Virus record (IMG/VR): IMGVR_UViG_3300045988_154997
Location: 37,871-101,870 of that record
Reading direction: 5' to 3' (one strand)
DNA: 64,000 bases
Origin: a virus
Taxonomy: Duplodnaviria; Heunggongvirae; Uroviricota; Caudoviricetes
The notes under the pieces were generated by a model. That model had not been told where the DNA came from. It made no database searches and saw nothing but the letters and a program-made list of their open reading frames with translations. This document shows, one piece after another, positions 1 through 60,340 of the stretch. The position numbers were made by a program, and so were the translations under genes. How positions within the stretch are numbered: the first letter of the stretch is position 1; the number at the start of each line of letters is the position of its first letter.

Positions 1-241
1 CATTCTAACTTATACTATGGTAAGGAATACTACTAAAATTTGTATCAATACTGAATACATTCATATCATATGCAAGTTACTTTTCTTACCTATTTTGGGC
101 TAATTTTTCTCCGTGCAATGGCCTTTAACCGGTCTTTTAAGTGCCTATCGAAAAAAATGATAATAGCTTTACAACCCTAACCTTTGATGTAATATCGGTA
201 AGCACTTACCAGAGAGAATTGAACGCGCAAAGGTTGTGACC

Positions 242-628
242 ATGTCTGATAACAAGATTGAATTTATAGAAAGTCGCTACGCTGCTTTTATCGCAGGGTT
301 GATTGAATCCTCACCTATGAGCCAGGCCCAGATAGCCAAAACAATTGGGTATAAAAACGCCAACAACCTTTCTTTAATTAAAAGCGGCAAAATTCCTTTG
401 CCTATCGATAAGGTTCGTCCGCTGGCGCTGGCACTGGGTATTGAGCCAAGTCGTCTTATGATGATGGTGCTGGAAGAACGCCAACCCGAACTCGCAGCAT
501 TTTTATACAAAGAAGGCACTGCTCCTCTTAACGAGGACGAAAAACAGGTTCTTGCTGCATATAACGAGCGATTCGGTAAAGAGAAAGGCGCATCACAAAA
601 GGTTGTTGAGGCCATAAAGTCTCTATGA
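242..628 (+). CDS. XRE-family HTH regulator (putative)
   Basis: ORF track 236..628 starts at GTG; first ATG at 242. HTH-like stretch SQAQIAKTIGYKNANNLSLIKSG. Converges on and overlaps the recombinase stop by 6 nt. Confidence 0.5.
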   Translation: MSDNKIEFIESRYAAFIAGLIESSPMSQAQIAKTIGYKNANNLSLIKSGKIPLPIDKVRPLALALGIEPSRLMMMVLEERQPELAAFLYKEGTAPLNEDEKQVLAAYNERFGKEKGASQKVVEAIKSL

Positions 629-1726
629 AAAATTTACACGAATAAGCTCTGTTGATAGACGATCTCCCTTAAATTTGTGGTCAATTTCGTCTAAATCCGG
701 TTGCTCTACGATTGATGCGATGTACGTCGAGAAACTTTCTAAGGCGTCTCGCATCTCGTCCATATAATCGTGCCGGTCGTAGACCCGATCTATCCCCTCA
801 AGACTGTGGTTCATGATTTTACGTGATACCTCCTGGCTTATGCCTAATGCTGGGAAGTAACTACGCGCAGTACGGCGCAAATCTCGGGGTGTAAATGGCT
901 CAAGCTCCATCAGTTCTGGTCGTTCCAGAATACGACGTAATGCCTGGGCTATTGCCACTTTAGACATAGGAAGGTCTTTCCCGATTTTTTTATTCGAAGG
1001 CACGAGCCACTGGCTGTCTTTACCATATTCGAACAACTCTTCAATACATGTGCGCATTAATGAGCTTAAAGGCAGAGAATGCTCACGGGCAGATTTGTTC
1101 CTCTTGCCTTGATTCCAAACCCCACGCTTAAGATTGAACTCACTTTTTTTAGCCCGCAGTACTTCGTCAGGTCGTCTTGCGGATACAAGACATAGCCTGG
1201 CCGCCCATTTTGTACCAGCACACACATTGAAGTAGTCCCATATATTCCAGAACACCCATACCTCTGCGTCGGTCAGCTTCCGCTCGCGAGGTGTGGGCTT
1301 TGCGCCACCGGCAACTTTGTTAAGTGACATATCGTTTAACGGTGACACGTCGATCATCCCCTGGAAGGCGCACCAGCTGAGGAACTGCTTCATCAGAGAG
1401 AAAACGCGGCGACCCATAACAATTTTGCCATCCAGTATTAGTGGGTTGACCAGTTGGTTCACCATGAACCTATTAATATCACTTACTTTTACATCGGCAA
1501 TGTGCGGCAAAACATGTATCAAAATACAATGAACAGCGATCTCTGGCCGACGTCTTGTTATCAGCAGAGATAAGCGAGTGAATAACATGAATGCGTCCGA
1601 GAATCTCATGTCATTGCTGACCTGGGAGATCATAACGGCCTGCATTTGAGATGCTCTTTCGAGATACTCAATCGCCTCTTTTGAGGTGTTCTCCGCAGCG
1701 CGTGCTCTGTCAAAGCTATTTTTCAT
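623..1726 (-). CDS. int: tyrosine recombinase / integrase
   Basis: C-terminal catalytic signature: ARRPDEV (Arg box), PRDLRRTARSY (box II-like), MNHSLEGIDRVYDRHDY (HxxxxxxxY with catalytic Tyr). Confidence 0.75.
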   Translation of the reverse strand: MKNSFDRARAAENTSKEAIEYLERASQMQAVMISQVSNDMRFSDAFMLFTRLSLLITRRRPEIAVHCILIHVLPHIADVKVSDINRFMVNQLVNPLILDGKIVMGRRVFSLMKQFLSWCAFQGMIDVSPLNDMSLNKVAGGAKPTPRERKLTDAEVWVFWNIWDYFNVCAGTKWAARLCLVSARRPDEVLRAKKSEFNLKRGVWNQGKRNKSAREHSLPLSSLMRTCIEELFEYGKDSQWLVPSNKKIGKDLPMSKVAIAQALRRILERPELMELEPFTPRDLRRTARSYFPALGISQEVSRKIMNHSLEGIDRVYDRHDYMDEMRDALESFSTYIASIVEQPDLDEIDHKFKGDRLSTELIRVNFS

Positions 1727-1824
1727 ATGACAATCACCGAGTTACGCCGATGCACTGTATAAGTAAACAGTATATTAGGCATAGATTCTTATAGGATCAA
1801 GAGTAAAAGTAACTCATTTTCAGT

Positions 1825-1857
1825 AATGATTCCATACATAGTAGGTATGGAATCATT
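1825..1857. promoter_or_regulatory. perfect 13-bp inverted repeat AATGATTCCATAC-N7-GTATGGAATCATT, candidate operator
   Basis: Read directly in the divergent intergenic region between the recombinase (minus) and the first cargo ORF (plus). Half-site recurs at 6642-6654 and 7654-7666. Confidence 0.5.
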
Positions 1858-1946
1858 GGGGGGCGATTTTTTTGAATCTATCTTTTCGAACGGAGGGGTT
1901 GGCTTCACTTTTATCTTCATCACCTAAAAGGTAATTGATTTACTTG

Positions 1947-2924
1947 AAAATGGCTGGTTTTATAGTATTGTCATGCGATCGCTGCAACAGGATAAGAAAA
2001 ATGATAAAAGAGACACCGGAAGTCAACACGCTATCTGAGTTATTAGGGGCTACGCCTCCCAAACCTCAGCTAGTAGTGACGACTAAAGGTATTGATTTAG
2101 GTCTGGATATCTCCCTCGGAGATTGGAATAACTCTTCATTATTATCACGACCTTCAGCTTTGTTAGCAATTGAGCATGGGGAAAATTTATTTGAACTCAT
2201 GGATAAAGAGTTAGGTCTTGTTGGTATTAATGAAGAAGGAGTGATCAAGTCAAACATCATTATCGAACTAGATCCCCATAAAACAACTATGAGAATATTA
2301 GGTAAAATTGCGGAAGCACTCATTGTTGAAGAATGTGAAAAAAACGCGAAACAAAATGAAAACTGGGCATTATTAGCAAAGAGATATACCCCTTTCACAG
2401 ATAGTTTGTCTAATTATAAAGCTGTTGGGACTGGACTCAACTATACGAAAATTAACTATCCTACTAAATATCAACCTAATGATACTCAACGGGACATTGT
2501 GTGGATAGACAAACGAGACCCACTTTCTCAATTACTTATTTCTGCTCCAACGTCGAATTCAGGTATACAGGCTGGAATTCAAGTGAAGGTCAGTGCAAAT
2601 GGTCTTAACTATCTATCACCAATGGATTTTTCTAGCAGAAGATATGAGGTCCCTATTGTTTACTTTGATTTAAATAATGATTTTTTTGAAATTCAGATGA
2701 AGATAGTGAACTCAGGAATTGATTCGGTTTATGGAATGGATTATCACCGTGGTAGAAACATTTCTCCTGAAATACATGAAAAACTATGTGCATATTATAA
2801 CCTTATATACTCCATTATCATTGGTGATATGAAATTAGAGGCTCTGTTACTAAATGAAGAGGCACTGAAAGGGTATGTGACTGAGATTAAAGATAGACAA
2901 GGTAAAAGAATAATCGTGACGTGA
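1947..2924 (+). CDS. hypothetical protein (AT-rich cargo gene, no recognisable motif)
   Basis: Long ORF 1935..2924 (TTG in track); first ATG at 1947, alternative ATG at 2001 with AGGA upstream. Visibly AT-rich compared with the structural genes. Confidence 0.45.
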   Translation, partial: KMAGFIVLSCDRCNRIRKMIKETPEVNTLSELLGATPPKPQLVVTTKGIDLGLDISLGDWNNSSLLSRPSALLAIEHGENLFELMDKELGLVGINEEGVIKSNIIIELDPHKTTMRILGKIAEALIVEECEKNAKQNENWALLAKRYTPFTDSLSNYKAVGTGLNYTKINYPTKYQPNDTQRDIVWIDKRDPLSQLLISAPTSNSGIQAGIQVKVSANGLNYLSPMDFSSRRYEVPIVYFDLNNDFFEIQMKIVNSGIDSVYGMDYHRGRNISPEIHEKLCAYYNLIYSIIIGDMKLEALLLNEEALKGYVTEIKDRQGKRIIVT

Positions 2925-3086
2925 AAACCTAAACTGTAAAGGCAACAAAAGGTGAAATAATAACTCATTAAAAGCACATTGTGTGAAATTTTAATCTGAT
3001 AATTCATATATCGGAAGGGATTTTAGATATTTTTAATATTTATAACTGTCCTTTTCATAGATATAGTTGATTTGAGCGCACACTTT

Positions 3087-3107
3087 CATGTAAAAAGCCG
3101 CCTAAGC
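3087..3107. terminator. hairpin AGCCGC-CTAA-GCGGCT, T-run on minus strand
   Basis: Stem-loop followed by TTTTT when read on the minus strand, immediately downstream of the glutaredoxin stop (3117). Confidence 0.5.
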
Positions 3108-3116
3108 GGCTCTTAA

Positions 3117-3502: not shown

Positions 3503-3558
3503 ATTGAGTCCTTTCAAGTGAGTATCCGAAAGAACTATACAGTTAACGTGCGTAAAAA

Positions 3559-3587
3559 GTAAGTGCTTACCTATCATTTATTGATAG
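3559..3587. promoter_or_regulatory. dispersed motif copy: GTAAGtgCTTAC palindrome + CTATCA-N5-TGATAG palindrome
   Basis: Contains the 16-mer GTGCTTACCTATCATT (3563-3578), identical to 9685-9700. Sits upstream of the plus-strand ORF at 3652. Confidence 0.4.
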
Positions 3588-3651
3588 AAGAATAGCCGCC
3601 TGTCGTGTGATACTATTTACAGAACTAAACTGGCTTTCCACAAGGTGTAAA

Positions 3652-4473
3652 ATGACTATCCTTGAAAATCCTGATGCGAATGTTGAATCTGTTTATAGTC
3701 TTCATCCAACCACGTTGTTTCATTTTACAAAAAACGAAGATGCTTTCTATAGCATATTGGCTGAGAAATATTTTAAACCATTTCTTGCTCGCGAGGAAAT
3801 AAGAGGAGTCGGGGGACGCAGGAGGTTTGCAGTACCAATGGTATCGTTTTGTGACATAAAACTATCACAAATCAGAGATCATAGCGGAAAATATGGAGAA
3901 TTCGGTCTTGGGCTAACTAAGTCTTGGGCGGAAAAGAAAGGTCTACACCCAGTTCTATATATGAATAAGAGTAGTGAAATATTTTCTAAATACAATGCCA
4001 GAATTCGACTTATTAAAAATAAGTTGGTGCCGCTTTGGAAGGCTAGAGGAAATTTAGATACCAAAAACAGAATAGAGTTTGAGAAATTGAAAGCAGAATA
4101 TTCTGATCTATATAATTTACTGCGTTATATGAAAAATTACAGAGGCAAGCTAGAGCGAAAAGATAATAAAACAATAGAGAATTATATATATGCAGACGAG
4201 AAAGAGTGGCGTTATGTGCCAGCTCCTTTTATTGGTGATTTATGGCCTAGTCTGAGTTTGGAGCGTGTTATCACTTCTGATGACAAAGCAAAAATTAGCT
4301 CAAAATTTTCAAAGTTTGGCATTGATTTTGAGTTCAATGATATAAAATATATACTTATACCTAAAGAACAACATATCCAAAAGCTAATTAACTTTCTCTC
4401 AGGTTTAGATGGATTTGAATCTTCAATTATTAGCAAAATTCTGACCATGGATAAAGTAAAGCAAGATTTTTAA
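3652..4473 (+). CDS. hypothetical Abi-like protein (N-terminal LFHFT motif)
   Basis: ORF 3607..4473; first ATG in frame at 3652 (MTILENP). N-terminal LFHFTKNEDAFYSIL recalls the HFT start of AbiGi-type proteins (from memory, unverified). AT-rich. Confidence 0.45.
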   Translation: MTILENPDANVESVYSLHPTTLFHFTKNEDAFYSILAEKYFKPFLAREEIRGVGGRRRFAVPMVSFCDIKLSQIRDHSGKYGEFGLGLTKSWAEKKGLHPVLYMNKSSEIFSKYNARIRLIKNKLVPLWKARGNLDTKNRIEFEKLKAEYSDLYNLLRYMKNYRGKLERKDNKTIENYIYADEKEWRYVPAPFIGDLWPSLSLERVITSDDKAKISSKFSKFGIDFEFNDIKYILIPKEQHIQKLINFLSGLDGFESSIISKILTMDKVKQDF

Positions 4474-4499: not shown

Positions 4500-5711
4500 G
4501 TGTCAATATTTTTAAGCGAAAAGGAAATGCAAAATTGGATAATTGACAAATTATCTGATCAAGATGGATTATATAATTCAATCATCAATATTGATAAATT
4601 AAATGAATTTAATCCGAAAAGACCCGAAGAGAAAAAAATTAAGGAGAGTTATCAGTTTTGTTTAAAGAACATAACATTGTTACATTTAATGACAGATGAT
4701 GAGAATATCTCAGCAACAAAATCTGAGATATTAAGACCTGATGTCGTTGCTTATTCAACAGAGAATGAATCCTTAGTTCTTATTGAGTTAAAAAATTTTT
4801 CAACACCAACAAGGGAAGCTGGAACTGAGCTAGTGGCATATGCTGCGGAACTAAAAAGTTACTTGTCATACTTGTCTGATGGAGATATTACCAATGTACT
4901 TATATCACCTGACTGGCCACCTTTGGTTAGACACTTTATTTTTAATATGATCGTGTGGCAGAAGAAAAACTTTCTATGTTTAGAACCTTGCTATGATTTA
5001 CAAGGTAACGTATCACTTACTCCTTTAGATATTAATAAATTAGTTATTGCGGAAGAAGCACTCAAGTTCTCATTTCGTCATCTTGGCGGGTTTCATATAT
5101 GTTTGTATGATGATGAAATGTATAATCAACCGACTTCCACTTCTCGTTTACATTCGAAATTGAATGTTATTAAAGCCAGCATGGCAAAAATGTCCTCAGA
5201 CGGTGAAAAGACTAATAGCCATGGGTTTGCTATTTTATGTAGAAATTTGAACGAGAGAACTTTAGCACCATATACGATTACTCTAGTTAATGTTTCTGCG
5301 TTTTCTTCCATAGAGCGATACTTTCATTCGCCACAAATATCCAATGCTTCTCAACTCCCTAGAATAGGACAAAAAATTTATGACATTTACACTCATTACC
5401 AACCATCAGGTTTTGGGGCATCAATGTCGAAAATTTACAATTCTGGGAGGGCATATTTAGAAAAAATTAATTGCAAGCCGCGGATCGAGGTTATAGACAC
5501 CTGGGATGTATTGCAAGTACATACACATGCGCCTTATATGGAAATGGTTCATATTGAAACGTGGGGAGTTTTTAAAGAAAAATTGATTGAAGGTCTAAAT
5601 GAATGTTATGAGGATGAATATTACACACCTGATTTTAACGATGTAGATTTTTGCATGGTGTGTATTGAATCCTTAATTGACCAGAATTATGAATTTATAA
5701 AACTTTTTTGA
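4500..5711 (+). CDS. PD-(D/E)xK nuclease-like protein (putative)
   Basis: 403 aa. Motif ILRPDVVAYSTENESLVLIELK fits the PD...(D/E)xK nuclease core. GTG start at 4500 with GGGAG 9 nt upstream; 26 nt after the previous gene. AT-rich. Confidence 0.5.
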   Translation: MSIFLSEKEMQNWIIDKLSDQDGLYNSIINIDKLNEFNPKRPEEKKIKESYQFCLKNITLLHLMTDDENISATKSEILRPDVVAYSTENESLVLIELKNFSTPTREAGTELVAYAAELKSYLSYLSDGDITNVLISPDWPPLVRHFIFNMIVWQKKNFLCLEPCYDLQGNVSLTPLDINKLVIAEEALKFSFRHLGGFHICLYDDEMYNQPTSTSRLHSKLNVIKASMAKMSSDGEKTNSHGFAILCRNLNERTLAPYTITLVNVSAFSSIERYFHSPQISNASQLPRIGQKIYDIYTHYQPSGFGASMSKIYNSGRAYLEKINCKPRIEVIDTWDVLQVHTHAPYMEMVHIETWGVFKEKLIEGLNECYEDEYYTPDFNDVDFCMVCIESLIDQNYEFIKLF

Positions 5712-5805: not shown

Positions 5806-5895
5806 CAATCACAGCGTTGAGCGGTCTGGTTTATGTTAGCGGAGTCTTAATCGAGTTGATTAAAAGGCCAAACCGCTCAACGCTGTGTCTGGCGG
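5806..5895. repeat. long inverted repeat (15-bp arms ACAGCGTTGAGCGGT / ACCGCTCAACGCTGT, ~56-nt spacer)
   Basis: Read directly. Arms resemble those of a second IR at 6712-6833. Lies next to the 3' end of tRNA-Ser. Confidence 0.5.
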
Positions 5896-5899
5896 AGAG

Positions 5900-5986
5900 T
5901 AATGGAATCGAACCATCATCGTTTGCACAATGGGACGATTTTCAAGACCGCTTGAGCACCATGCTCCCTACTCTCCGGCCGTTGTG
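5900..5986 (-). tRNA. tRNA-Ser (anticodon UGA, type II) - tentative isotype
   Basis: 87 nt; reverse complement starts GGAGAGT, ends GGTTCGATTCCATTACTCTCCGCCA. Anticodon loop CTTGAAA. Long variable arm. Anticodon stem has two G-U pairs. Confidence 0.6.
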
Positions 5987-6200
5987 GTGGCCGGTACTGA
6001 ATCTCCGGCATACGGTGCAGCCAATTAGGACTACGGACGATCACCGCTCGCGAAAGGGAAGATTTGCGGCCGCATTTCCCTAACATCCAAGAAAGCTATC
6101 GCATCAGTCTGCGAATCCACCACAACGGTAAGATCACTACCTTTCGACCAGTCATTGTGCACATGAACGACGATTAACCGTAATGATCTTATCGTTGTAT

Positions 6201-6276
6201 TGGTGCCGGTTAACGGACTCGAACCGCTGACATCCTGCTTACAAGGCAGGCGCTCTACCAACTGAGCTAAACCGGC
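6201..6276 (-). tRNA. tRNA-Thr (anticodon UGU)
   Basis: 76 nt GCCGGTTTAGCTCAGTTGGTAGAGCGCCTGCCTTGTAAGCAGG...GGTTCGAGTCCGTTAACCGGCACCA; perfect acceptor and anticodon stems; CCA encoded. Confidence 0.8.
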
Positions 6277-6280
6277 AATT

Positions 6281-6367
6281 TGGTGGGGAGTGATGGAGTC
6301 GAACCACCCGAGTCGCAATGACAGTAGATTTACAGTCTGTCCCGCTACCTCTACGGACTAACTCCCC
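6281..6367 (-). tRNA. tRNA-Tyr (anticodon GUA, type II), atypical anticodon stem
   Basis: 87 nt GGGGAGT...ACAGA-CTGTAAA-TCTAC...GGTTCGACTCCATCACTCCCCACCA; resembles E. coli tRNA-Tyr but the two outer anticodon-stem pairs are C-A / A-C. Confidence 0.65.
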
Positions 6368-6372
6368 TAAAT

Positions 6373-6447
6373 TGGCGATGGTGGGTGGATTCGAACCACC
6401 GACCAGTTGGTTAACAGCCAACTGCTCTACCGCTGAGCTACACCATC
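6373..6447 (-). tRNA. tRNA-Asn (anticodon GUU)
   Basis: 75 nt GATGGTGTAGCTCAGCGGTAGAGCAGTTGGCTGTTAACCAACTGGTCGGTGGTTCGAATCCACCCACCATCGCCA; canonical cloverleaf. Confidence 0.8.
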
Positions 6448-6989: not shown

Positions 6990-7193
6990 TTCATCGGAGG
7001 GAACTCTCATGTTCCCTCCTGCGTTCTGCAATCACACTCGCTCAGTGTGTCCCATTTCGGTAACGAGGCTGGAAACTGACCTCGCTGGTGTTTGGCTTAT
7101 TAGGCTACTGCCAGATAGACTTCTTCGTTTGCACTTGTATTTAAGTTCAAACAGTCGCGTCTCAACGAAAACAAAGTCATCTTATACATAAAA

Positions 7194-7219
7194 GATAGGT
7201 AAGTAAATACTTATTATTG
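7194..7219. promoter_or_regulatory. dispersed motif copy (GATAGGTAAGTA + TAAGTA-aa-TACTTA)
   Basis: Contains the reverse complement of TACTTACCTATC and a TAAGTA..TACTTA palindrome; just downstream of the gene ending at 7225. Confidence 0.35.
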
Positions 7220-7224: not shown

Positions 7225-7515
7225 TTATTCGGTTGTGACTTTTTTGATCAAGGCCACTCTACGACTAGGTGTTCTTGTGATGGTGGCAGTGAATTGTTTC
7301 GCTTGGATAGTAATGGTTTCGTTCTCCTTAAGTTGCCCGTAGCGAGTTTCCACCAGGGTGCCAAGACGCCACAGACCATCATCGATACGTTTATGACTAG
7401 CAAATTTAATCAGCAACAGTTTTACGACTAACTGACCTACGTAAAAGGCGAATGCGACTCCGGCCGCTAAGAAATAGGTGACCAACCACCATTCCCAAGA
7501 AGTTAACTTGCTCAT
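7225..7515 (-). CDS. small membrane protein (hypothetical)
   Basis: 96 aa with hydrophobic segment WEWWLVTYFLAAGVAFAFYVG; start overlaps the upstream stop as ATGA. Confidence 0.5.
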   Translation of the reverse strand: MSKLTSWEWWLVTYFLAAGVAFAFYVGQLVVKLLLIKFASHKRIDDGLWRLGTLVETRYGQLKENETITIQAKQFTATITRTPSRRVALIKKVTTE

Positions 7516-9662: not shown

Positions 9663-9684
9663 AATTACCGCCAGAAATAATCTT

Positions 9685-9700
9685 GTGCTTACCTATCATT
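9685..9700. promoter_or_regulatory. dispersed motif copy GTGCTTACCTATCATT
   Basis: Exact 16-mer shared with 3563-3578, in the intergenic region between minus-strand genes. Confidence 0.4.
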
Positions 9701-9729: not shown

Positions 9730-10512
9730 TTACCAACTTCCCCAGCTAATCATCTTGCGCTGATCGCTTTCTAAGCGATAGGGGGCAAGAAGCTCTGTGA
9801 CATGATTGGTGGCGTATGATTTGGCCTCTTGCTCTATCATCGGTAATTCGTTAGCAATCCTGACCATCTTCCCAGCAAATTCCGCCATTACGCCATCACA
9901 CGCCTTACCCGCATCAACAATGATATGCACAAGATCCAACTGGCTTTTGCACATGTCCCAAAGAGTCGAATATTCGCTCTCCCTGATTAGATTTACAGCA
10001 TCATTAGCCCCTTTATTAATCAAAACCTCCAACAGATTTGTCGGGGTGACGAAATCGGCTTTCAGAGACAATGTTGGTTCAGCTTTTACCGACAGCAAGT
10101 AATCTTCAAAGTTTTGCTTGTCTTCCAGCAAAGCTAAACTACGCATAGCTCGAATTGATTCTCGAATAACGGCTTCAATATGTTCGTCACCTGGAGGACA
10201 GATAATGGTATCTGTATAGATGACTCTGCCATCAAACCACGTCCCAACCTGCACTTTTAGAGTTCGTAAGTTTTCTTTGCGTACAAAAACAACTAATGCA
10301 GAACGTCGTGCATGTGCAGGTTCGCCCCATACGCACAACTTAACCTTCAGATAAGGTAGCCCCGGTAGCGGGATCTCGACCAAACGAGTGGCGATATGAT
10401 CCATTGCCGTATTGACGGCTTTTCCAATGATGTCTAGCCGATTGCTCTCGCTGATTTCTAAACCAGTTTTATCAATGATGTTGCAGGCTAATCTCTTAAT
10501 TTCTTCTTTCAT
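9730..10512 (-). CDS. hypothetical protein
   Basis: 260 aa ORF, no motif recognised. Confidence 0.45.
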   Translation of the reverse strand: MKEEIKRLACNIIDKTGLEISESNRLDIIGKAVNTAMDHIATRLVEIPLPGLPYLKVKLCVWGEPAHARRSALVVFVRKENLRTLKVQVGTWFDGRVIYTDTIICPPGDEHIEAVIRESIRAMRSLALLEDKQNFEDYLLSVKAEPTLSLKADFVTPTNLLEVLINKGANDAVNLIRESEYSTLWDMCKSQLDLVHIIVDAGKACDGVMAEFAGKMVRIANELPMIEQEAKSYATNHVTELLAPYRLESDQRKMISWGSW

Positions 10513-10553
10513 ACCAACTCCTAGCTAACGGATGAAAGTATTCTTACAAAAAC

Positions 10554-10580
10554 TTAAGTATGTATATACTTATCATTTTA
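10554..10580. promoter_or_regulatory. dispersed motif copy TAAGTA-tgtata-TACTTA + TCATTTTA
   Basis: Palindromic motif in the intergenic region upstream of the 9730..10512 gene. Confidence 0.35.
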
Positions 10581-15818: not shown

Positions 15819-15819
15819 C

Positions 15820-15840
15820 TGATAGGTAGTTACTTACTTA
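15820..15840. promoter_or_regulatory. dispersed motif copy (reverse orientation: TAAGTAAGTAACTACCTATCA)
   Basis: Lies ~10 nt upstream of the start codon of the 15069..15818 gene on the minus strand. Confidence 0.35.
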
Positions 15841-15927
15841 TTGCAATGAGCGGATGATAGCGACTGGTGGCAGTTTTTGGAAGTGGAAACGGAAGGGAAT
15901 GTGTCTGGGAAGTTGGCATAGAAAAAG

Positions 15928-15985
15928 ACCTGCTTCCGTATAAATAATAATAAGTAACTTAGTATTTATATACAGAAGCAGGTTC
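15928..15985. repeat. ~58-bp palindromic element (CCTGCTTCCGTATA...AT-rich core...TATACAGAAGCAGG)
   Basis: 14-bp GC-containing arms around an AT-rich core with TAAGTAACTTAGTA; a paralogous element sits at 49989-50045. Confidence 0.5.
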
Positions 15986-40985: not shown

Positions 40986-40993
40986 CGATTAAC

Positions 40994-41377: not shown

Positions 41378-41378
41378 A

Positions 41379-42187: not shown

Positions 42188-42266
42188 GCTCTCTCTCTGT
42201 TGTTGTCGGTCGCTCTCATTACTGGCCAAAAACCCTTTCGACCAAAAGTAAATAATGCGACTGGCG

Positions 42267-43534: not shown

Positions 43535-43578
43535 AACGCATTCTCTCTACATGGGCGGCTTTCGCCGCCCAATATTGA

Positions 43579-44499: not shown

Positions 44500-44572
44500 T
44501 TCTCGCTCCTACAAAAAGGGTGGGCGTATAGCCCACCCTTTAACATAGATAACTACCTATCTACCACACTGA

Positions 44573-45448: not shown

Positions 45449-45473
45449 CTATCAATTCCCTTTGATTTAGATG

Positions 45474-46361: not shown

Positions 46362-46382
46362 AAAAATTCCTTTTGTTACTTA

Positions 46383-47957: not shown

Positions 47958-47975
47958 TTGAATAACCTTGGATAA

Positions 47976-47990
47976 TTACTTACCTATCGA
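47976..47990. promoter_or_regulatory. dispersed motif copy TTACTTACCTATCGA
   Basis: In the 26-nt gap between the terminase large subunit and the portal. Confidence 0.35.
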
Positions 47991-49240
47991 GAACCACCAA
48001 GAATAACACGGTTTTTGACTGGATACCTACGATGTACTGGATAGCCCAATGCGTCTGCACTATGCTCAATGCCACCTGTCTTATCCATATCTCGTGTTCC
48101 AGGCTTGTAGATGACTTTTTCCAGTGAATCAATCAAATGCTTGCACTTCGGATCGATATACAGCCGGATATCTCCAGATGCGGACATCAGCATTCGGTTA
48201 ACAGCATTAACACGATCCGCAATTGGCGGGTGCTTTTTCGAATAATCGACACGTAAGAATCCCTTCTCTTTGAATATGTCTACGTCAGACTCCCCACGAG
48301 CATGTTGGCGATAAGCACCTGCCGGATCTGGAAATACCGTTACCTGTGATTTCCAGCGCCAGAAGCGTCTCTCAAGCTCATCACAAACTTCTGCCGTGTT
48401 AGAGGAAAAGAGCACCAATTCATCAATTGCCCATAGCTCACCATTTGGCTGAGGTTGCAAAATTACTGAAGACATCGGGTCAATGTTGAAGTCCTGCCCT
48501 ACCCATATAGGCAACCGAGGGTTGAACTGAAGCGGTTTTACATGCACGTTACGATCGAACGGGTAGTAAACGCGCCCGGACATGTTCTCAAAGCTGGCCA
48601 GGTACTCCTGAGCGAACGATTTGGGGTCCATATCGTTCTTAGCAGCTTCAATTTCCGCCGTAGGTACAAACGGAGAATCGGCAGTTACAAACTGCCAGCT
48701 CTTCCACTGTCCCTTTCTTTGCAGCTCTACGTTCTGGCCTATAGTCCACAGTTTGTGAAATTCCGAGAAGCCTTTTGGCGTACCAATGATCAGTGCACCG
48801 CCGCGTGTCGATGAAAGAGTAGGTCGTAACACCTTGTACCAGGTGTCAGCCTTCATATCCTGAAATTCATCAAGCACTACAAAATGCAACGCTACGCCGC
48901 GCAGAGTGTCAGGCTTATCAGCACCTTTGAGGGCGATCTCCGAACCGTTCTTCAACACGATTGTCATCGTGGTGTCGTTCTTTTTCCTAACCCACTTACG
49001 AGGCAGAACTTCCTGTAGATCGTCCCATAAAATCTGGCGAGCCATCTGGTAAGTAGGAGCGACATACCAGACCCTTTGCTTTTTTTCCTTTGCCGCCGCA
49101 CGAATAATAGTGGAGATCGACAACCGGGATTTTCCCCAGCGTCGACCAGCACAAACAACTTTAAATCGATGCGGAGACTGGAAGACTTTCATCTGTCCAG
49201 AATGCAGTTGCACAAGACTGAGCGAGGACGGGATTGCCAT
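47984..49240 (-). CDS. terminase large subunit
   Basis: Walker A VVCAGRRWGKS, Walker B VVLDEF; C-terminal nuclease-sized domain. Confidence 0.85.
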   Translation of the reverse strand: MAIPSSLSLVQLHSGQMKVFQSPHRFKVVCAGRRWGKSRLSISTIIRAAAKEKKQRVWYVAPTYQMARQILWDDLQEVLPRKWVRKKNDTTMTIVLKNGSEIALKGADKPDTLRGVALHFVVLDEFQDMKADTWYKVLRPTLSSTRGGALIIGTPKGFSEFHKLWTIGQNVELQRKGQWKSWQFVTADSPFVPTAEIEAAKNDMDPKSFAQEYLASFENMSGRVYYPFDRNVHVKPLQFNPRLPIWVGQDFNIDPMSSVILQPQPNGELWAIDELVLFSSNTAEVCDELERRFWRWKSQVTVFPDPAGAYRQHARGESDVDIFKEKGFLRVDYSKKHPPIADRVNAVNRMLMSASGDIRLYIDPKCKHLIDSLEKVIYKPGTRDMDKTGGIEHSADALGYPVHRRYPVKNRVILGGSR

Positions 49241-49969: not shown

Positions 49970-49988
49970 TCTGGCATGTCTTACGAAG

Positions 49989-50045
49989 CCTGCTTCCGTA
50001 TATATTTAATAAGTTACTTATTATTTATATATACAGATGCAGGTC
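49989..50045. repeat. ~57-bp palindromic element, paralogue of 15928-15985
   Basis: CCTGCTTCCGTATATAT...TAAGTTACTTATTA...ATATATACAGATGCAGG. Confidence 0.5.
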
Positions 50046-51234: not shown

Positions 51235-51896
51235 GAATGGACCTCATCATGACTACCATTGTGATATTCCACCTTCACGCGTTCTTTGTAGTGCTTGGTG
51301 ATCTGCATATCCGGGCGCAGCGCGTTCTTCAGGTCTTCGTGAGTCGTCGCCACCATTACCGTCGCACCAACCTTTCGAGCGGCACGCTGGAGGTTAGACG
51401 CCACAACCTGAGCGGTTACACGGTCGAGAACAGCGCCGAACTCGTCAGCAGCCCACACTTTAGCGCCTGACTCAATCAGTTTGGCAATCTTGAGACGATA
51501 TTTCTGACCGTCTGACATTTCAGAAGGCTTGCGAACAAACAGATATGCATCGTTCAGACCAGCCATAGATAACAACCCAAGCGCATCGCTGGTCGTTTTG
51601 CCCAACTGATCGATGACGTTAACCTCATTATCGAAGGTAAAATCATCGATGGAGGCTACAGACAGCCCTTCATCCTTCATCTGTCGTTGCAACTCGCGCA
51701 GCACAACGGATTTGCCGGAACCGGATTGGCCGGTGATGTACACCACATCGCCCTGCTTCACTTCCAGCTCCAGATTGTCGTAAAGCGTCCACTCTTTTTC
51801 GTCCAGGCCAAGCCCGAACGACTCAGCGATTTCCAACGTGCGCGTGGTTTTATTTACGCGTGTCTGAAACGATACGTTGATGATGTATTTGCTCAT
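51231..51896 (-). CDS. ABC-type P-loop ATPase
   Basis: Walker A GQSGSGKS, ABC signature-like LSDGQKYRL (my call; the 4th residue is D, and only one Gly is present), Walker B VWAADEF, H-loop TTHED; 221 aa. Confidence 0.7.
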   Translation of the reverse strand: MSKYIINVSFQTRVNKTTRTLEIAESFGLGLDEKEWTLYDNLELEVKQGDVVYITGQSGSGKSVVLRELQRQMKDEGLSVASIDDFTFDNEVNVIDQLGKTTSDALGLLSMAGLNDAYLFVRKPSEMSDGQKYRLKIAKLIESGAKVWAADEFGAVLDRVTAQVVASNLQRAARKVGATVMVATTHEDLKNALRPDMQITKHYKERVKVEYHNGSHDEVHS

Positions 51897-52594
51897 GCAG
51901 CCATCTCCCCGGAAGAGATCTTCTCCGCATATGCCACAAATGCGTCTACCCCGCTTTCTCCCGTCATTTCTTCCATGTGGGCAAGCAAATCACCAACAAC
52001 AATGGCAGAGCCAGCAGGAAGCGTTTTAAAGCCCAATACGTCGACAACACGTACTTCTTCCGCTGCAACTTCACGACTGATCTCGGTGTGTTCATCCTTC
52101 TGTCGTTTAGTTTCTTCGCCAAGATCGATAACTAGCGAGTCGGTGTCCATTTCTTCTGTCATGCTACCAACGAGAACATTCAACTCACGCTCTTCAAAGC
52201 CGAAAACCTCGATATCGTCCAGAACAAGCGACTCAAGCTCTTTCTGTAGCTTAATTGCATCGTAATCAATGCTGGCAAGTCGGTTATCTTCAAGGCGCTT
52301 CGCACGAACCTCGTCATCACTGAGATCATCGCGAACAATAACCGGTACGCGCTCAAGTCCAGCAAAAATTGCAGCCTCACGGCGGCCGTGGCCAGTAATA
52401 ATTACGTCGTTCTTATCGACCGTAATTGGCTGGTCAAATCCGCGCTTTTTAATGGCTGCGGCTAGATCTCGGATCTGCTGTTCATCATGCTTTTTGGCAT
52501 TCATCTCATAGGGAATAAGATCTGCCGGGTCGCGATATACGATTTCAAACTTTTTGGTCATTACATACGCTCCTTGTAGTAGTCGACCAGCCAC
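51893..52594 (-). CDS. ParB-like nuclease domain protein
   Basis: ParB/Srx N-terminal motif IITGHGRREAAIFAGLERVPVIV; acidic C-terminal half. Confidence 0.6.
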   Translation of the reverse strand: MAGRLLQGAYVMTKKFEIVYRDPADLIPYEMNAKKHDEQQIRDLAAAIKKRGFDQPITVDKNDVIITGHGRREAAIFAGLERVPVIVRDDLSDDEVRAKRLEDNRLASIDYDAIKLQKELESLVLDDIEVFGFEERELNVLVGSMTEEMDTDSLVIDLGEETKRQKDEHTEISREVAAEEVRVVDVLGFKTLPAGSAIVVGDLLAHMEEMTGESGVDAFVAYAEKISSGEMAA

Positions 52595-53259
52595 ACCAGA
52601 GCCTCACCAGCGTTCTCCATTTCATTACCGGTGTTAATAGCCTGCTCTTTGATGATGTTTTTTATGGTTTCTGCAACACGATCTGACGCATCGAAAGTTA
52701 CTTTGAAGCGCATGGTCTGATGTTCCGCACCCACACGTTCGGTTTTCTCTCGTTTGTCGGTATCGACAGGCTCATCACTACCACGAGACAACGCCTCCAG
52801 TGCTTCAAGGTCGATTGCCGCCTCTTTTGCTAAAACCATCGAGATTTCGTCGTCATACGGGGCGATTTCAGACAGTTGATAGTCAAGTTCTGACTGAATT
52901 TCTTCAATGAAGCGTTGCAATGCGATTTGGTCGTCTTCACCGTATCGCTCGTTGTCCACCAGTGACATCTGTTTAGCTACGACATCGCTAATTTTGCCCA
53001 CAGAAAGCACCGGAACCGTTGAAATTCCTTGCTCAATAGCAGCACGCCAGCGATGTTCGCCGCCGAGGATTTCAAAAAATCCATCTTCAAGTTCACGAGC
53101 CAAAATTGGCTTAAAAAAGCCCAATTTTTCGATAGAACCTTTCAGTTTTTCAAAATTCTGCGCACCAACCGAATTGGTGTTCCAGGTATTCGGGCGAAGG
53201 TTGGCAACATCAACCTGCAAAATCGTGATTTTTACATCCATTTTATTGCTACAATCCAC
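52561..53259 (-). CDS. ParB-like nuclease domain protein (second copy)
   Basis: ParB/Srx motif ILGGEHRWRAAIEQGISTVPVLSV; first gene of the operon. Confidence 0.6.
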   Translation of the reverse strand: MDCSNKMDVKITILQVDVANLRPNTWNTNSVGAQNFEKLKGSIEKLGFFKPILARELEDGFFEILGGEHRWRAAIEQGISTVPVLSVGKISDVVAKQMSLVDNERYGEDDQIALQRFIEEIQSELDYQLSEIAPYDDEISMVLAKEAAIDLEALEALSRGSDEPVDTDKREKTERVGAEHQTMRFKVTFDASDRVAETIKNIIKEQAINTGNEMENAGEALVWLVDYYKERM

Positions 53260-53277
53260 TAAGTAATCACTTACTTA
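53260..53277. promoter_or_regulatory. dispersed motif copy TAAGTAA-tcac-TTACTTA in a divergent promoter region
   Basis: Palindrome between the minus-strand ParB-like operon start (53259) and the plus-strand helicase start (53324). Confidence 0.4.
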
Positions 53278-53323
53278 TTATAATAGCCAAATAACATACA
53301 AAAGGCACTAAGGAAAGAGGTTT

Positions 53324-55190: not shown

Positions 55191-55655
55191 ATGAAGTCTC
55201 CCATACTGTTCACTTTCTGTTCTAAAACTATCATGAAATACTCGCTTCTCCCTCTACTAACGTTACCAGTGTTGATGCTTACCGCGTGCCAATCACGCCC
55301 AATATCAATCCATGACGCCAAACCAGCACCGCAGGCCAAAGTGTTCAAGTATCAAAGCGCAGCGCCAGCTACGTTGGTGGTAATGAGAGACACAGGTTTT
55401 GTAGGAGCTGGATGTGATGCTTCCATTTTCATCAACGGCGAAACTGTCGCAAAACTGGCTACAGGCGAAAAAGCGACTTTCCATTTAAATGCCGGAGAAT
55501 TAATTGTGGGTGCATCTCTTGAAGGTGCAGGTTTATGTGCTCTAAACCCCGCTCGTCAAGAGCGAGAAACGACTCTGAAGAATGGAGACACAAAAGCGTT
55601 CAGGGTGTTCACCAGCAATTCTGGTGACATCGACATTCTGCCAACAACTCTGTGA
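55191..55655 (+). CDS. lipoprotein (hypothetical)
   Basis: Signal peptide with lipobox LLTLPVLMLTAC. Confidence 0.5.
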   Translation: MKSPILFTFCSKTIMKYSLLPLLTLPVLMLTACQSRPISIHDAKPAPQAKVFKYQSAAPATLVVMRDTGFVGAGCDASIFINGETVAKLATGEKATFHLNAGELIVGASLEGAGLCALNPARQERETTLKNGDTKAFRVFTSNSGDIDILPTTL

Positions 55656-55659
55656 TGAC

Positions 55660-56184
55660 ATGACAACCAAAGATATTACCTACGGTATCCAAGCTGAACT
55701 CTGGCCGCGAGATTACACTAACGTTGAAAAACTACTGATGTTCTGGCGCAGAGAACAAATTCCTGTAAGGGTCACTCTCGAAGATGGCCAGGCGTTTTGC
55801 ATGTACGTTTATGGCCTCATGCCATCTCGTAACAAAGTTGACCTTTGCCCAGCCCCTTTTGACAAAGAAAATCGTATAAGGCTCCCACTTGAACGCATTA
55901 GTACAATTGAATCAGGTGTGGTTGACAGTATCGCTCACGATTTCAAAGGTCGACTAACAGTTCACCCTGATTATGTCGATAATCGGCCATCACGCCGCGA
56001 TTTTTTTGCAATTTGCAACCAAGCCTACAAAGCAAACAAATCTATAAGGGTGTACATGGCGGATGGCCGTGAAATTGAGGGGGTGTCAGCAGGCGCAGAT
56101 GCTTGTCAGGTTACACTACGTGTCGAGAACGGTAGAAAAATAGTTGTTTTGTTCGATTGGGTTGAACGAATTTTGCCTTTTTGA
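55660..56184 (+). CDS. hypothetical protein
   Basis: Track ORF 55582..56184; in-frame ATG at 55660 (MTTKD) lies just after the upstream stop. Confidence 0.45.
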   Translation: MTTKDITYGIQAELWPRDYTNVEKLLMFWRREQIPVRVTLEDGQAFCMYVYGLMPSRNKVDLCPAPFDKENRIRLPLERISTIESGVVDSIAHDFKGRLTVHPDYVDNRPSRRDFFAICNQAYKANKSIRVYMADGREIEGVSAGADACQVTLRVENGRKIVVLFDWVERILPF

Positions 56185-59758: not shown

Positions 59759-59805
59759 GATGGTTTCCTTATTAAGTTGCTTCAGTGAAATCATTTTCAC
59801 AAATC

Positions 59806-59826
59806 AGATAAGGCAGAAAACAAATT
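59806..59826. promoter_or_regulatory. conserved promoter/operator element (GAAAACAAATTGTTATCGGGC)
   Basis: Copy of the AACAAnTTGTT element upstream of the 59384..59758 gene. Confidence 0.4.
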
Positions 59827-59832
59827 GTTATC

Positions 59833-59857
59833 GGGCATAATAAAATGGCGCGGTTTA
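59833..59857. terminator. rho-independent terminator (AAATGGCGCG-GTTTA-CGCGCCATTT), minus strand
   Basis: Perfect hairpin with T-rich tail on the minus strand, downstream of the stop at 59876. Confidence 0.6.
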
Positions 59858-59875
59858 CGCGCCATTTAAAGAGGA

Positions 59876-60271
59876 TTAAGCGAATACGCTTTCAGGGATT
59901 AAGGTGTCGGCAGGAATGCCAGAGGTAATGCGCAGACCGTACTGGCCAATCCAGGTGGTGCTGGTGTTCAGGCTGGAGGCGAATACGGTGTTAACCATAT
60001 TCATCATGGTTTCAAACACCTCTTCATCAACCTGGCGGAAGTAGTTCTCGATTTTCAGCAGCAGCGGGTCAGTTGCATCGAGAATGGACTGGTATTGAGT
60101 CGCGTACTCGCCGCCGGAGGCGTCACCTTTACGCACGATCGTACTGGCCTGGACTTCGGCACCAGTTTCGGTGTTGTACGTAACAACGGTAATTTTTGCC
60201 ACATTCTTACCTTCGGCGGTTTCAGAGGCATAGTAAACATCAACTGTCAGTTTTTCGCGTTTAACGGTCAT
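59876..60271 (-). CDS. hypothetical protein
   Basis: 131 aa ORF between a terminator and an upstream palindromic motif. Confidence 0.5.
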   Translation of the reverse strand: MTVKREKLTVDVYYASETAEGKNVAKITVVTYNTETGAEVQASTIVRKGDASGGEYATQYQSILDATDPLLLKIENYFRQVDEEVFETMMNMVNTVFASSLNTSTTWIGQYGLRITSGIPADTLIPESVFA

Positions 60272-60314
60272 TTCACTCTCCGTAGTGTATTGGTTATTTT
60301 TCTATTCTATGATC

Positions 60315-60330
60315 GTAAGTATGTACTTAC
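60315..60330. promoter_or_regulatory. dispersed motif copy GTAAGTA-tg-TACTTAC
   Basis: Near-perfect palindrome ~45 nt upstream of the 59876..60271 gene start. Confidence 0.4.
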
Positions 60331-60340
60331 AATACAAAAA

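Follow-up and report, generated by a model that had tools for sequence, protein, structure and literature searches.

What function is served by the short palindromes scattered between the genes of this phage DNA? The stretch analysed (the window, 64,000 nucleotides) shares 95-98% identity with the SSU5-like phage-plasmid Cyrano, an Escherichia phage, and its source is an SSU5-type phage-plasmid of E. coli. The initial annotation described the palindromes as a variably spaced TAAGTA-N-TACTTA motif, present at 15 or more intergenic sites (15 were listed) at a density beyond chance, and proposed a phage-specific regulatory site such as a late promoter, an activator or repressor site, or a processing site.

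The excess over chance was borne out. Allowing up to three mismatches, GTAAGTANNTACTTAC had 19 matches in the window against 1.9 in shuffled sequence, and TACTTACCTATCATT had 10 against 1.4. A symmetric 28-bp matrix, trained on SSU5 and one Klebsiella relative only, with the window left out, returned 14 sites of at least 12 bits, compared with 0.125 expected (maximum 2) from 200 shuffles that kept local composition in 100-nt blocks. Because shuffles that preserve composition yield so few sites, AT-richness is no explanation for the family.

The consensus is a fixed dyad, (A)TGATARGTAAGT|ACTTACYTATCA(T), spanning 22-28 bp, in which two GATARGTAA half-sites flank a 4-bp centre, forming a perfect 20-bp palindrome that matches both strands equally; its outer arms bear -10-like hexamers (TATCAT or TATTAT). 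The apparent variable spacing results from an internal 4-nt periodicity of GTAA/GTAC, and the family is one fixed-register dyad with only two true +4 variants, at 40970 and 60315, both conserved. About 15 copies adjoin lytic genes in the window. The sequences reported for the copies were present where they had been placed, and of the 15 positions 11 proved to be full members (3559, 7194, 10554, 15820, 22052, 27572, 34478, 40970, 46461, 53260 and 60315), one a core only and two conserved half-sites. The remaining position, 19135, was rejected as a member (score -38, with only an ACCTATCATT arm), and one member, at 44541-44568, had been overlooked.

Site 2 (3551-3578; full dyad, CGTAAAAAGTAAGTGCTTACCTATCATT on the plus strand, 26.3 bits) occupies the divergent gap between a glutaredoxin operon (minus strand) and an AbiGi gene (plus strand), and its Klebsiella orthologue lies upstream of a PhoH-glutaredoxin operon. 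Site 3 (7191-7218; full dyad, 34.3 bits; orthologues 32.2 in Cyrano, 28.0 in SSU5 and 38.0 in Klebsiella) starts 7 nt past the stop codon of the minus-strand ORF 7225-7515, with the dyad centre about 20 nt away, upstream of a tRNA cluster (tRNAs at 5890-6447). Site 4 (9673-9700, listed as 9685; 5.5 bits) is a half-site between two minus-strand genes, with a good AATGATAGGTAAGCAC on the minus strand and a degenerate other half, and this half-site is retained in Cyrano, SSU5 and Klebsiella. Site 5 (10550-10577; full dyad, 25.2 bits; orthologues 25.3 and 31.2) lies 52 nt upstream of the CYRAN_34 homologue (9730-10512, minus strand), and CYRAN_34 expression steps up in the lysogen data. Site 6 (15818-15845; full dyad, 18.8 bits; orthologues 19.3, 15.3 and 29.8) immediately precedes the CYRAN_31 homologue, with which the helicase/primase module begins. 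Site 7 (22042-22069; 21.7 bits; orthologues 20.0, 21.4 and 27.7) precedes the holin gene (21660-21995, minus strand).

Site 8 (27567-27594; 24.8 bits; orthologues 26.3 and 25.2) separates tail gene J from the tail-fibre gene and is followed in the sense direction by a GC hairpin (27541-27565), and site 9 (34479-34506; 19.7 bits; orthologues 26.7, 29.2 and 36.0), between minor tail genes M and L, is followed by a 10-bp GC hairpin (34451-34473). Site 10 (40966-40993), between the tail-completion and tail-tube genes, is a +4 variant, GGTAAGT-ATAT-ACTTAC, which scores 22.5 bits in two registers and contains a perfect 16-bp palindrome (40970-40985); its spacing is retained in Cyrano, SSU5, Klebsiella and a divergent Klebsiella plasmid. 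Site 11, the overlooked member (44541-44568; 13.3 bits, with a perfect 40.4-bit Klebsiella orthologue), directly follows the stop codon of the major capsid gene, with a T-tract terminator hairpin (44522-44538) immediately after it; this order of stop, site and terminator is retained in Klebsiella and Acinetobacter. Site 12 (46457-46484; 27.8 bits; Klebsiella orthologue 31.8; identical in Cyrano and SSU5) is not intergenic as had been stated but falls within the 3'-terminal part of the portal gene, where it takes up the 17-bp spacer of a near-consensus sigma-70 promoter on the minus strand (TTGAAA-17-TATGAT, 10/12 match) facing the next head gene, which is at background in the lysogen. Site 13 (47964-47991, listed as 47976; 8.7 bits), between the large terminase and portal genes, is degenerate, with the left half only, and its orthologues score 14.1 in Cyrano, 25.6 in SSU5 and 35.5 in Klebsiella, the last two being strong full sites; 21 nt separate its centre from the start codon of the portal gene, a space too short for a promoter plus leader. 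Site 14 (53255-53282; 16.3 bits) lies in the divergent gap between the first ParB-like gene (minus strand) and a UvsW-type helicase gene (plus strand), and Acinetobacter has a site at the same junction (record position 69364). Site 15 (60311-60338; +4 variant GTAAGTA-TG-TACTTAC, 13.1 bits; retained in Cyrano, SSU5 and Klebsiella) directly follows an intrinsic terminator upstream of ORF 59876-60271 and occupies the spacer of TTGTAT-17-GATCAT on the minus strand. The suggestion that copies often stand between a terminator and the next start codon applies to the 60315 copy alone, and at three sites the GC hairpin is downstream of the site.

Site positions are conserved across six related genomes. 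At the scan thresholds used, Cyrano, SSU5, a Typhi pHCM2-like plasmid and two Klebsiella relatives have 25-28 sites per genome, almost all of them in non-coding DNA next to lytic genes, and the same junctions are occupied despite sequence drift in Cyrano, SSU5, Klebsiella, the divergent Klebsiella plasmid and the pHCM2-like plasmid. In Cyrano, 24/25 sites are non-coding (p about 1e-20) and all are beside lytic genes, none heading plasmid-maintenance or toxin-antitoxin genes. Throughout these SSU5-type phage-plasmids, nearly all lytic transcription units have sites at the head and at internal junctions. A distant relative from Acinetobacter has the same network with a changed half-site, TCAGTCA-N4-TGACTGA; its 83.7 kb contain 28 sites where 0.34 would be expected, including orthologous junctions at TerL|portal, after the capsid gene, at helicase|ParB and upstream of SbcD. 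The network appears to be undescribed so far for the SSU5-type family, which is clinically widespread.

The dyad arms vary independently of each other: 8.9 of 14 positions form Watson-Crick pairs, compared with 8.96 after re-dealing arms among sites, and A-C mismatches between arms are as frequent as G-C, which is consistent with sequence read-out of the duplex. This lack of covariation and the weakness of the predicted RNA hairpins point to a double-stranded DNA site for a protein rather than a hairpin or terminator, and the copies are most likely bound by one phage-encoded dimeric regulator.

A candidate for this regulator is encoded beside site 1. The gene (236-628, plus strand; CYRAN_45 homologue) specifies a 130-aa XRE/HTH_19-type repressor, with a weak Pfam HTH_19 match below cut-off and a match to phrog_8 'transcriptional regulator' (1e-11). 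Site 1 (190-217), in the control region of this gene, consists of a perfect 14-bp core dyad, GGTAAGCACTTACC at 197-210, without outer arms, and lies 1 nt downstream of the -10 of a sigma-70 promoter predicted by promoter scan (168-195, plus strand; TTTACA, 16-nt spacer, TAATAT), which would place it at about -5 to +9 of the inferred start point. Three lineages retain TTTACA-16-TAATAT with the dyad after it, the spacer sequence differing in Klebsiella and the pHCM2-like plasmid; the core is perfect in Klebsiella and reads GGTAAGTGCTTACT in the pHCM2-like plasmid, and the Cyrano copy, identical to site 1, scores 19.2 bits with a core-14 matrix. SSU5 is without the repressor gene only because of a deletion, a 7.5-kb segment that the pHCM2-like plasmid has. 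Site density in the immunity region is no higher than in other intergenic DNA. The XRE recognition helix and the half-site are conserved together and both are altered in Acinetobacter (the helix reading KRPNVLSMIKSG vs KNANNLSLIKSG), and the XRE-type protein is the leading candidate binder of the dyad. Two ParB-like proteins and an 88-aa putative winged-helix protein are conserved as well as the XRE protein or better and also diverge in Acinetobacter, so this co-variation does not single out the XRE protein.

We put at about even the chance that the dyads are dispersed operators and roadblocks of this XRE-type immunity repressor. In the plasmid-prophage state the dyads would be occupied by repressor, and initiation would be blocked, since the outer arms carry the -10-like hexamers and some dyads take up the entire -35/-10 spacer of a strong sigma-70 promoter. 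Copies within operons that have no room for a promoter could act as roadblocks against read-through, in the manner of mycobacteriophage stoperators. Site 1, at the start point of the repressor promoter, would provide negative autoregulation, and it also faces the first gene of the opposite, lytic-direction operon. As a separate observation running against a repressor, site 1 is a 14-bp core only within a family whose consensus is 22-28 bp, and that length is long for a small XRE dimer.

Published RNA-seq of the Cyrano lysogen, a relative of the window's element, shows the repressor expressed at 96 against a background of 9.8, about 10-fold. Genes next to sites are generally silent, including those whose near-consensus sigma-70 promoters enclose a dyad (CYRAN_4, 10.9; CYRAN_56, 5.0, the floor). 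Two Cyrano sites, before CYRAN_81 and UvsW, are upstream of genes expressed in the lysogen, and site score correlates weakly with leaky downstream expression (rho -0.24 to -0.30, p 0.19-0.33). The best -10 lies at 7, 10 or -14 from the dyad centre, a variable position as expected for operators.

Two known repressor systems resemble this arrangement. In P1, a single plasmid-prophage immunity repressor, C1, has many operators scattered over about 100 kb, which overlap promoters of lytic and accessory genes, regulators included (the annotated record lists Oref, Omat, Ossb, Oc4, OrepL and Olpa); C1 is not of XRE type and its operators are asymmetric 17-mers, whereas the present dyad is two-fold symmetric, 22-28 bp long and unrelated in sequence, and also recurs within the late operon at intervals of about two to five genes. 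The stoperators of L5 and Bxb1, bound by a gp71-type repressor, are asymmetric, orientation-dependent 13-bp sites present in some 25-30 copies in short gaps between genes of both early and late lytic operons, frequently abutting a stop or start codon, and are believed to obstruct elongation in addition to initiation. The present sites are similar in number and likewise spread through lytic operon gaps, but they are palindromic, have an orientation bias only in the Acinetobacter variant, and their repressor binding and roadblock role are putative.

An activator-dependent lytic promoter, in which the outer arm (TATCAT/TATTAT) is the -10 and a dyad near -20 substitutes for the -35, is a less probable reading that we regard as unlikely. 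A phage activator, for example the 88-aa putative winged-helix protein encoded immediately before the small terminase gene or a Cro-like product of the gene opposite the repressor, would recruit RNA polymerase, and binding at the repressor start point would shut the repressor off. The layout recalls P1 late promoters, in which a 9-bp Lpa box with the same AAGT/ACTT half-core dyad (AAGTKACTT-N4-TAnnnT) stands 4 bp from the -10 without a -35; here an 8-bp core (AAGTACTT) lies 3 bp from the hexamer, within the 22-28 bp dyad. The -35 is not conserved and is absent at most sites, so many putative promoters would be weak even if derepressed, as an activator predicts. Sigma-70-like promoters around the sites are more frequent in sense (37/92) than antisense (19/92), hexamer position 5 is more often A on the downstream arm (0.63 vs 0.42), the Acinetobacter downstream half is degraded towards TATACT (28 vs 6 mismatches, p = 0.0018), and, under partial induction, expression steps up just past several sites (CYRAN_12, 34, 56 and 60). 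Against this, some sites leave only 21-27 nt before the start codon (TerL|portal), a terminator directly follows the post-capsid site in three lineages, the conserved block extends over the first bases of the -10 itself, symmetric sites would fire in both directions, and the silence of near-consensus promoters enclosing a dyad requires repression. A P1 Lpa-type late promoter was rejected as the identity of the sites: Lpa boxes occur only at late genes and depend on Lpa, a search for an Lpa (PF25716) homologue found none, and the present sites also precede early-type genes for replication, recombination and nucleotide metabolism besides structural genes. On the sequence evidence we favour the repressor over the activator.

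It is improbable that the dyads are instead loading or binding sites of the two ParB-like proteins (52561-53259 and 51893-52594), serving genome organisation, packaging or long-range transcription control in lytic growth. Dispersed 13-16 bp palindromes bound by ParB-family proteins include the KorB operators of RK2, used for plasmid-wide repression, parS and Noc-binding sites, and the 14-bp core fits their size and form. Two ParB_N-domain proteins are encoded in every relative, Acinetobacter included, a site stands directly upstream of the ParB-like operon in the enteric and Acinetobacter lineages, and a location right after stop codons, whatever the order of promoter and terminator, would suit sites that need only non-coding DNA. 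Lysogen expression of the two ParB-like genes is 5.0 and 9.5, at or close to the floor, so their products cannot be the silencer there. The helix-turn-helix of these proteins, like ParB binding here, is putative, and a role in transcription is indicated by the fixed geometry relative to the repressor promoter and by the strand-related asymmetry of the Acinetobacter sites.

RNA or single-stranded DNA hairpins acting as terminators, RNase processing sites or mRNA stabilisers are very improbable: the sites are inverted repeats, many start a few nucleotides past a stop codon (centre 6-28 nt downstream) and A and T runs flank some, but arm pairing shows no excess or compensatory changes, the AU-rich stems have predicted stabilities of -1.3 to -10.8 kcal/mol (median about -4.5), separate canonical GC-rich terminators adjoin several sites, Rfam gave no matches, and conservation falls on the sequence itself rather than on pairing. 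Of the functions first proposed, the late promoter and the processing site are not supported, and a phage-specific regulatory protein site is supported by the conserved dyad without covariation, its restriction to non-coding DNA beside lytic genes, its positional conservation and the copy at the repressor promoter.

The palindromic sequences listed by the initial annotation are all present where it had placed them, and their density exceeds chance as it had claimed. A symmetric 28-bp matrix, trained on SSU5 and the Klebsiella phage pJN2-26 only and thus with the window excluded, detected 14 sites of at least 12 bits in the window, against an expected 0.125 (maximum 2) in 200 shuffles that preserved composition in 100-nt blocks. 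Pattern searches of the window matched GTAAGTANNTACTTAC 19 times (1.9 in shuffled controls) and TACTTACCTATCATT 10 times (1.4 in shuffled controls), and the 8-mers ATAAGTAA and TTACTTAT rank near the top for over-representation in the related phage-plasmids Cyrano (15 versus 1.75) and SSU5 (10 versus 0.53). Since the excess is over controls that keep local composition, AT-richness is ruled out as the origin of the motif family.

A palindrome with a variable spacer (N2 or N6) did not survive iterative alignment over four genomes, which resolved the copies into one register with the consensus (A)ATGATAGGTAAGT joined to ACTTACCTATCAT(T). At the core of this consensus stands the perfect 20-bp palindrome ATAGGTAAGTACTTACCTAT, and the apparent variation in spacing arose because of an internal GTAA/GTAC periodicity. 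The canonical register holds for the copies listed at window positions 197 and 3559, and four extra central bases occur only in those listed at 40970 and 60315, where this longer form is retained in orthologues. The central 4 bp are free to vary in a divergent Klebsiella plasmid, which keeps GATAAGTAA and TTACTTATC; this gives the working model GATARGTAA-N4-TTACYTATC, referred to here as the dyad. Hits from the iterative alignment are balanced between strands (window 15/16, Cyrano 27/28, SSU5 26/28, Klebsiella 32/32). Most of the 15 copies listed by the initial annotation belong to this family, eleven as full members, the one at 197 by its core only and those at 9685 and 47976 as conserved half-sites; the copy at 19135 is not a member, and a further dyad at 44541-44568 had been overlooked.

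Pairing between the two arms of a site is no higher than between arms exchanged among sites. Klebsiella sites have 8.93 Watson-Crick pairs of 14, compared with 8.96 when the arms are re-dealt, the other genomes give similar values, and in the R/Y column of the dyad A-C mismatches and G-C pairs are equally frequent (18 each). Sequence that is conserved while pairing is not is characteristic of a site where a protein binds with two-fold symmetry, which makes the dyad a candidate site for protein binding in double-stranded DNA.

Escherichia phage Cyrano (OV696614), an SSU5-like phage-plasmid of E. coli LF82, is 95-98% identical to the window in reverse orientation and lacks some of its segments. 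Most genes of the window, including the entire head, tail and lysis module, are on its minus strand. Site counts are 14-15 in the window and 25-28 per genome, with 26 dyads in the divergent Klebsiella plasmid and 28 in a Salmonella Typhi pHCM2-like plasmid. Almost every window site is matched in Cyrano, SSU5 and Klebsiella by a site at the corresponding junction, also where drift has altered the sequence, the dyad between TerL and portal scoring 8.7 bits in the window and 35.5 in Klebsiella. Within the IMG/VR viral collection the exact 20-mer is limited to 26 stretches, all in contigs of 13-112 kb (mostly 56-112 kb), and in species-representative genomes it was met 13 times, once each in metagenome bins without relation to the family, a number close to chance and uninformative.

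The network extends in altered form to the Acinetobacter baumannii plasmid NZ_CP035046, a distant relative with the same gene order as the window. The 83.7 kb fetched from this plasmid contain 28 variant dyads, TCAGTCA-N4-TGACTGA, against 0.34 expected, at orthologous junctions that include TerL-portal, the end of the capsid gene, helicase-ParB and the regions upstream of SbcD and CobS/CobT-like genes. Together with TAAGTAA in Enterobacteriaceae, this implies a general half-site T[A/C]AGT[A/C]A, in which the variable positions are A in Enterobacteriaceae and C in Acinetobacter. From these comparisons, the dyad network appears to be ancestral and to have co-evolved with its reader.

Placement was counted against annotated gene starts in Cyrano, where 24 of 25 dyads are non-coding although non-coding DNA makes up only 13% of the genome (p about 1e-20); the sole coding copy lies in the final 100 nt of the portal gene. 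Dyads precede or separate the portal, scaffold-like, capsid-neighbour and tail-tube genes, tail gene L, the fibre and holin genes, the helicase/primase module, the tRNA cluster, the genes for SSB, SbcD, NrdA, ThyX and Dam methylase, the UvsW/ParB-like junction and others. Those of Cyrano are all beside lytic genes and none heads plasmid-maintenance, toxin-antitoxin, RepA or integrase genes; two weaker dyads are upstream of CYRAN_81 and UvsW, which the lysogen does express. Many dyads have their centre only 6-28 nt beyond the preceding stop codon, and the following start codon is 12 to 760 nt away. This latter distance is 21-27 nt at the TerL-portal junction, and the dyad after the capsid gene directly precedes a T-tract terminator hairpin in the window, Klebsiella and Acinetobacter, so not every copy can be a promoter.

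The leading candidate for the protein that reads the dyads is a 130-aa XRE repressor of HTH_19 type, encoded at window 236-628 on the plus strand. Its gene has matches in 865 plasmid records, which come from Klebsiella, E. coli, Enterobacter, Yersinia (plasmids of about 100 kb from Y. pestis), Salmonella (including a Typhi pHCM2-like plasmid) and Acinetobacter. The XRE recognition helix is conserved alongside the conserved half-site (KNANNLSLIKSG, KNPNILSLIKKG, ENANNISLIKSG), and in Acinetobacter the helix differs (KRPNVLSMIKSG), as does the half-site. A single base separates the promoter predicted for the repressor gene, TTTACA-16-TAATAT, from the dyad core downstream of it at 197-210. This would place the site at the transcription start of the gene, and the hexamers and dyad, but not the spacer, are kept in three lineages, including Klebsiella and the pHCM2-like plasmid. 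The repressor control region of the divergent Klebsiella plasmid has two dyads, and the Acinetobacter XRE gene is adjoined by two full dyads and one half-copy. Given the predicted promoter, the repressor-gene dyad would stand where an autoregulatory operator classically lies.

Absence of the XRE gene from SSU5 was considered as an argument against this protein and dismissed. SSU5 and the pHCM2-like plasmid are 95% identical over 87 kb, and SSU5 lacks a 7.5-kb segment (positions 41021-48561 of the pHCM2-like plasmid) with the genes for the integrase and the XRE repressor as well as the immunity-region site, so the gene is missing only because SSU5 is a deletion of a pHCM2-like genome. The same deletion could explain the plaque-forming phage behaviour of SSU5.

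Transcription in the lysogen is consistent with silencing at the dyads. RNA-seq of the Cyrano lysogen (PMC9928086, supplementary table) gives a value of 96 for the repressor over a background of 9.8, and the dyad-adjacent genes are at background. Two near-consensus sigma-70 promoters have a dyad as their 17-bp spacer, the portal-internal TTGAAA-17-TATGAT and TTGAAA-17-TATCAT, and the genes behind them, CYRAN_4 and CYRAN_56, are at 10.9 and at the floor, respectively (PMC9928086). The best sigma-70-like -10 has no fixed position relative to the dyad and several copies sit where no promoter fits. Expression of the repressor, silence of the adjacent genes, the unfixed -10 and the copies with no room for a promoter were all counted in favour of repression, and a model in which the dyads are dispersed operators or roadblocks is given about an even chance. 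Dyad score has a weak, non-significant negative trend with leaky downstream expression.

One of the two closest functional analogues of the dyads is the stoperators of mycobacteriophage L5, which are asymmetric and stand in one orientation relative to transcription; among dyads, an orientation bias is seen only in the Acinetobacter variant. The other is the dispersed C1 operators of the phage-plasmid P1, which are annotated in the P1 record. The dyads resemble both in number, dispersion and placement and, as in dispersed-operator systems, they have many copies in the non-coding gaps of lytic operons and one copy (197-210) in the repressor gene's own control region. They are palindromic, unlike the asymmetric P1 operators, and their binder is likely to be of another protein family.

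That the dyads and their binder form an ancient co-evolving genome-wide silencing or roadblock system of the whole SSU5 supergroup from Enterobacteriaceae to Acinetobacter is a speculative and quite unlikely reading. In it, the 25-30 sites would let a single small repressor govern about 100 kb, or the same control would fall to two ParB-like clamp proteins in the manner of KorB, and some sites would be elongation roadblocks inside operons and just ahead of terminators.

Alternatively, the dyads could be activator-dependent promoters, which is unlikely but agrees with several observations. Most dyads have no -35 at all, their outer arms resemble -10 hexamers with a slight downstream-side bias, expression climbs just past some of them in partly induced samples and their general appearance recalls P1 late promoters. 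In Acinetobacter the upstream half is near-invariant (6 mismatches) and 28 mismatches have eroded the downstream half in a systematic way towards TATACT (p = 0.0018); the enteric dyads are symmetric, with upstream/downstream half-site mismatches of 23/31, 38/49, 44/38 and 41/50, none of them significant. The initial annotation had named a late promoter among several options, but beyond the general look the dyads do not belong to the Lpa-dependent class of P1, from which they differ in box geometry, gene class and activator. The P1 box is a 9-bp inverted repeat, AAGTKACTT, near -22 and 4 bp upstream of the -10 hexamer in the annotated record; in the dyad AAGT and ACTT abut without a central base, 3 bp from the hexamer and inside a dyad of 22-28 bp. 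P1 late promoters have a TAnnnT -10 and no -35. Dyads have TATCAT or TATTAT on both arms, mostly without a conserved -35, but these -10-like hexamers belong to the palindrome itself and a few dyads do have a good -35. Lpa promoters are confined to the late operons for morphogenesis, lysis and packaging, whereas dyads also precede SSB, SbcD, NrdA, ThyX, Dam methylase, helicase/primase-module and tRNA genes. The best tblastn match to Lpa had E = 0.74, a profile HMM of 10 Lpa homologues reached at best E = 0.31 among six-frame ORFs of four genomes, and PF25716 (Lpa) had no hit among 20 window proteins scanned.

That the dyads are loading sites for ParB-like proteins is distinctly improbable. ParB-family binding sites (parS, Noc-binding site, KorB operator) are palindromes of 13-16 bp; the 14-bp core of the dyad is GGTAAGTACTTACC. 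Two proteins with a ParB N-terminal domain are encoded in all relatives, as is an 88-aa protein, weakly similar to winged-helix regulators, whose gene lies upstream of the small terminase gene. In the Cyrano lysogen, expression of the ParB-like genes is at the floor or close to it (PMC9928086). An action as RNA hairpins carries almost no weight, and the dyads were rejected as intrinsic terminators or structured RNA, given predicted hairpins of only -1.3 to -10.8 kcal/mol, the lack of excess pairing and no family match in Rfam; canonical GC-rich terminators adjoin several dyads as distinct elements. GC-rich hairpins lie immediately downstream, in the sense of transcription, of three late-operon sites (27541-27565, 34451-34473 and 44522-44538), and the last of these, after the capsid gene, has a T tract and a stop-site-terminator order that is kept in Klebsiella and Acinetobacter.

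A FljA-family protein at window 55582-56184 (PF03614, 'repressor of phase-1 flagellin', E = 2.5e-84) was considered as a binder since it is an annotated repressor, conserved among enteric relatives and in 831 related plasmids. The taxonomic spread of the XRE gene is similar to that of this gene, with the addition of Acinetobacter, which is not among the taxa listed for the FljA-family plasmid matches. The divergent Klebsiella plasmid has an unchanged motif with a protein that is just 36% identical, and the 83.7 kb fetched from the Acinetobacter relative lack the protein but keep the site network, making it an unlikely binder. Its C-terminus has a weak Hfq-like hit. Searches of solved structures with the XRE, FljA-like and 88-aa proteins returned nothing useful.

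The motif sequence was not found in any relevant paper of the literature searched, and papers on the SSU5-type plasmid family held no operator, promoter, repressor or motif description relevant to the dyads. The dyads form a real and conserved candidate cis-regulatory network that appears to be previously undescribed, and the silence of lysogeny and the lytic switch of SSU5-type phage-plasmids also appear not to have been described before. These elements are common, also clinically, judging from the 865 records with the repressor gene, and can carry resistance genes. A 22-bp site, a full site map and a named candidate repressor make their lysis-lysogeny control directly testable, and the half-site change from TAAGTAA to TCAGTCA with its accompanying recognition-helix changes provides a natural specificity-swap test. 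Phage regulators with many dispersed sites are a well-known kind of system, so that a gap is filled and nothing is overturned; if the silencing or roadblock reading is true, Gram-negative phage-plasmids would have a 'stoperator' system of palindromic sites, or a phage would for the first time be seen to have a transcription network of ParB type.

Cyrano lacks some accessory genes of the window, among them one for an AbiGi-like abortive-infection protein (PF10899, E = 5e-25), followed by a gene that is probably its partner (3607-4473 and 4500-5711), and one for a Sel1-repeat protein (11285-12430). Four tRNA genes (Ser, Thr, Tyr, Asn) are clustered at 5890-6447 on the minus strand; the Cyrano annotation has three (Asn, Thr, Ser). 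Matches to sigma-70 promoters in a simple scan are depleted in the structural module at 20001-40000 (12 versus 24.9 +/- 5.0 in shuffles). Chi (GCTGGTGG) is about 10-fold over-represented and strand-biased: the minus (sense) strand has 9 copies and the plus strand 4, where 0.84 would be expected on each, for example at 8179, 14218, 31200 and 47302. The palindromic 8-mer TACCGGTA has six copies against 0.38 expected, all intragenic (12928, 22330, 41248, 42353, 47076 and 61544).

A second repeat family consists of AT-rich hairpins of about 57 bp with GC-containing clamps (CCTGCTTCYGTATA...TATACRGAAGCAGG), found at window 15928-15983 and 49988-50044 and in three copies per genome in Cyrano, SSU5 and Klebsiella. 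One copy directly precedes the small terminase gene and another precedes the helicase/primase module. In the relatives, a T run flanks most of the copies, which resemble bidirectional terminators, and CCCAGAC(C) repeats follow downstream. The centre of the hairpin, ATAAGTnACTTAT, includes the P1 Lpa-box pattern AAGTnACTT.
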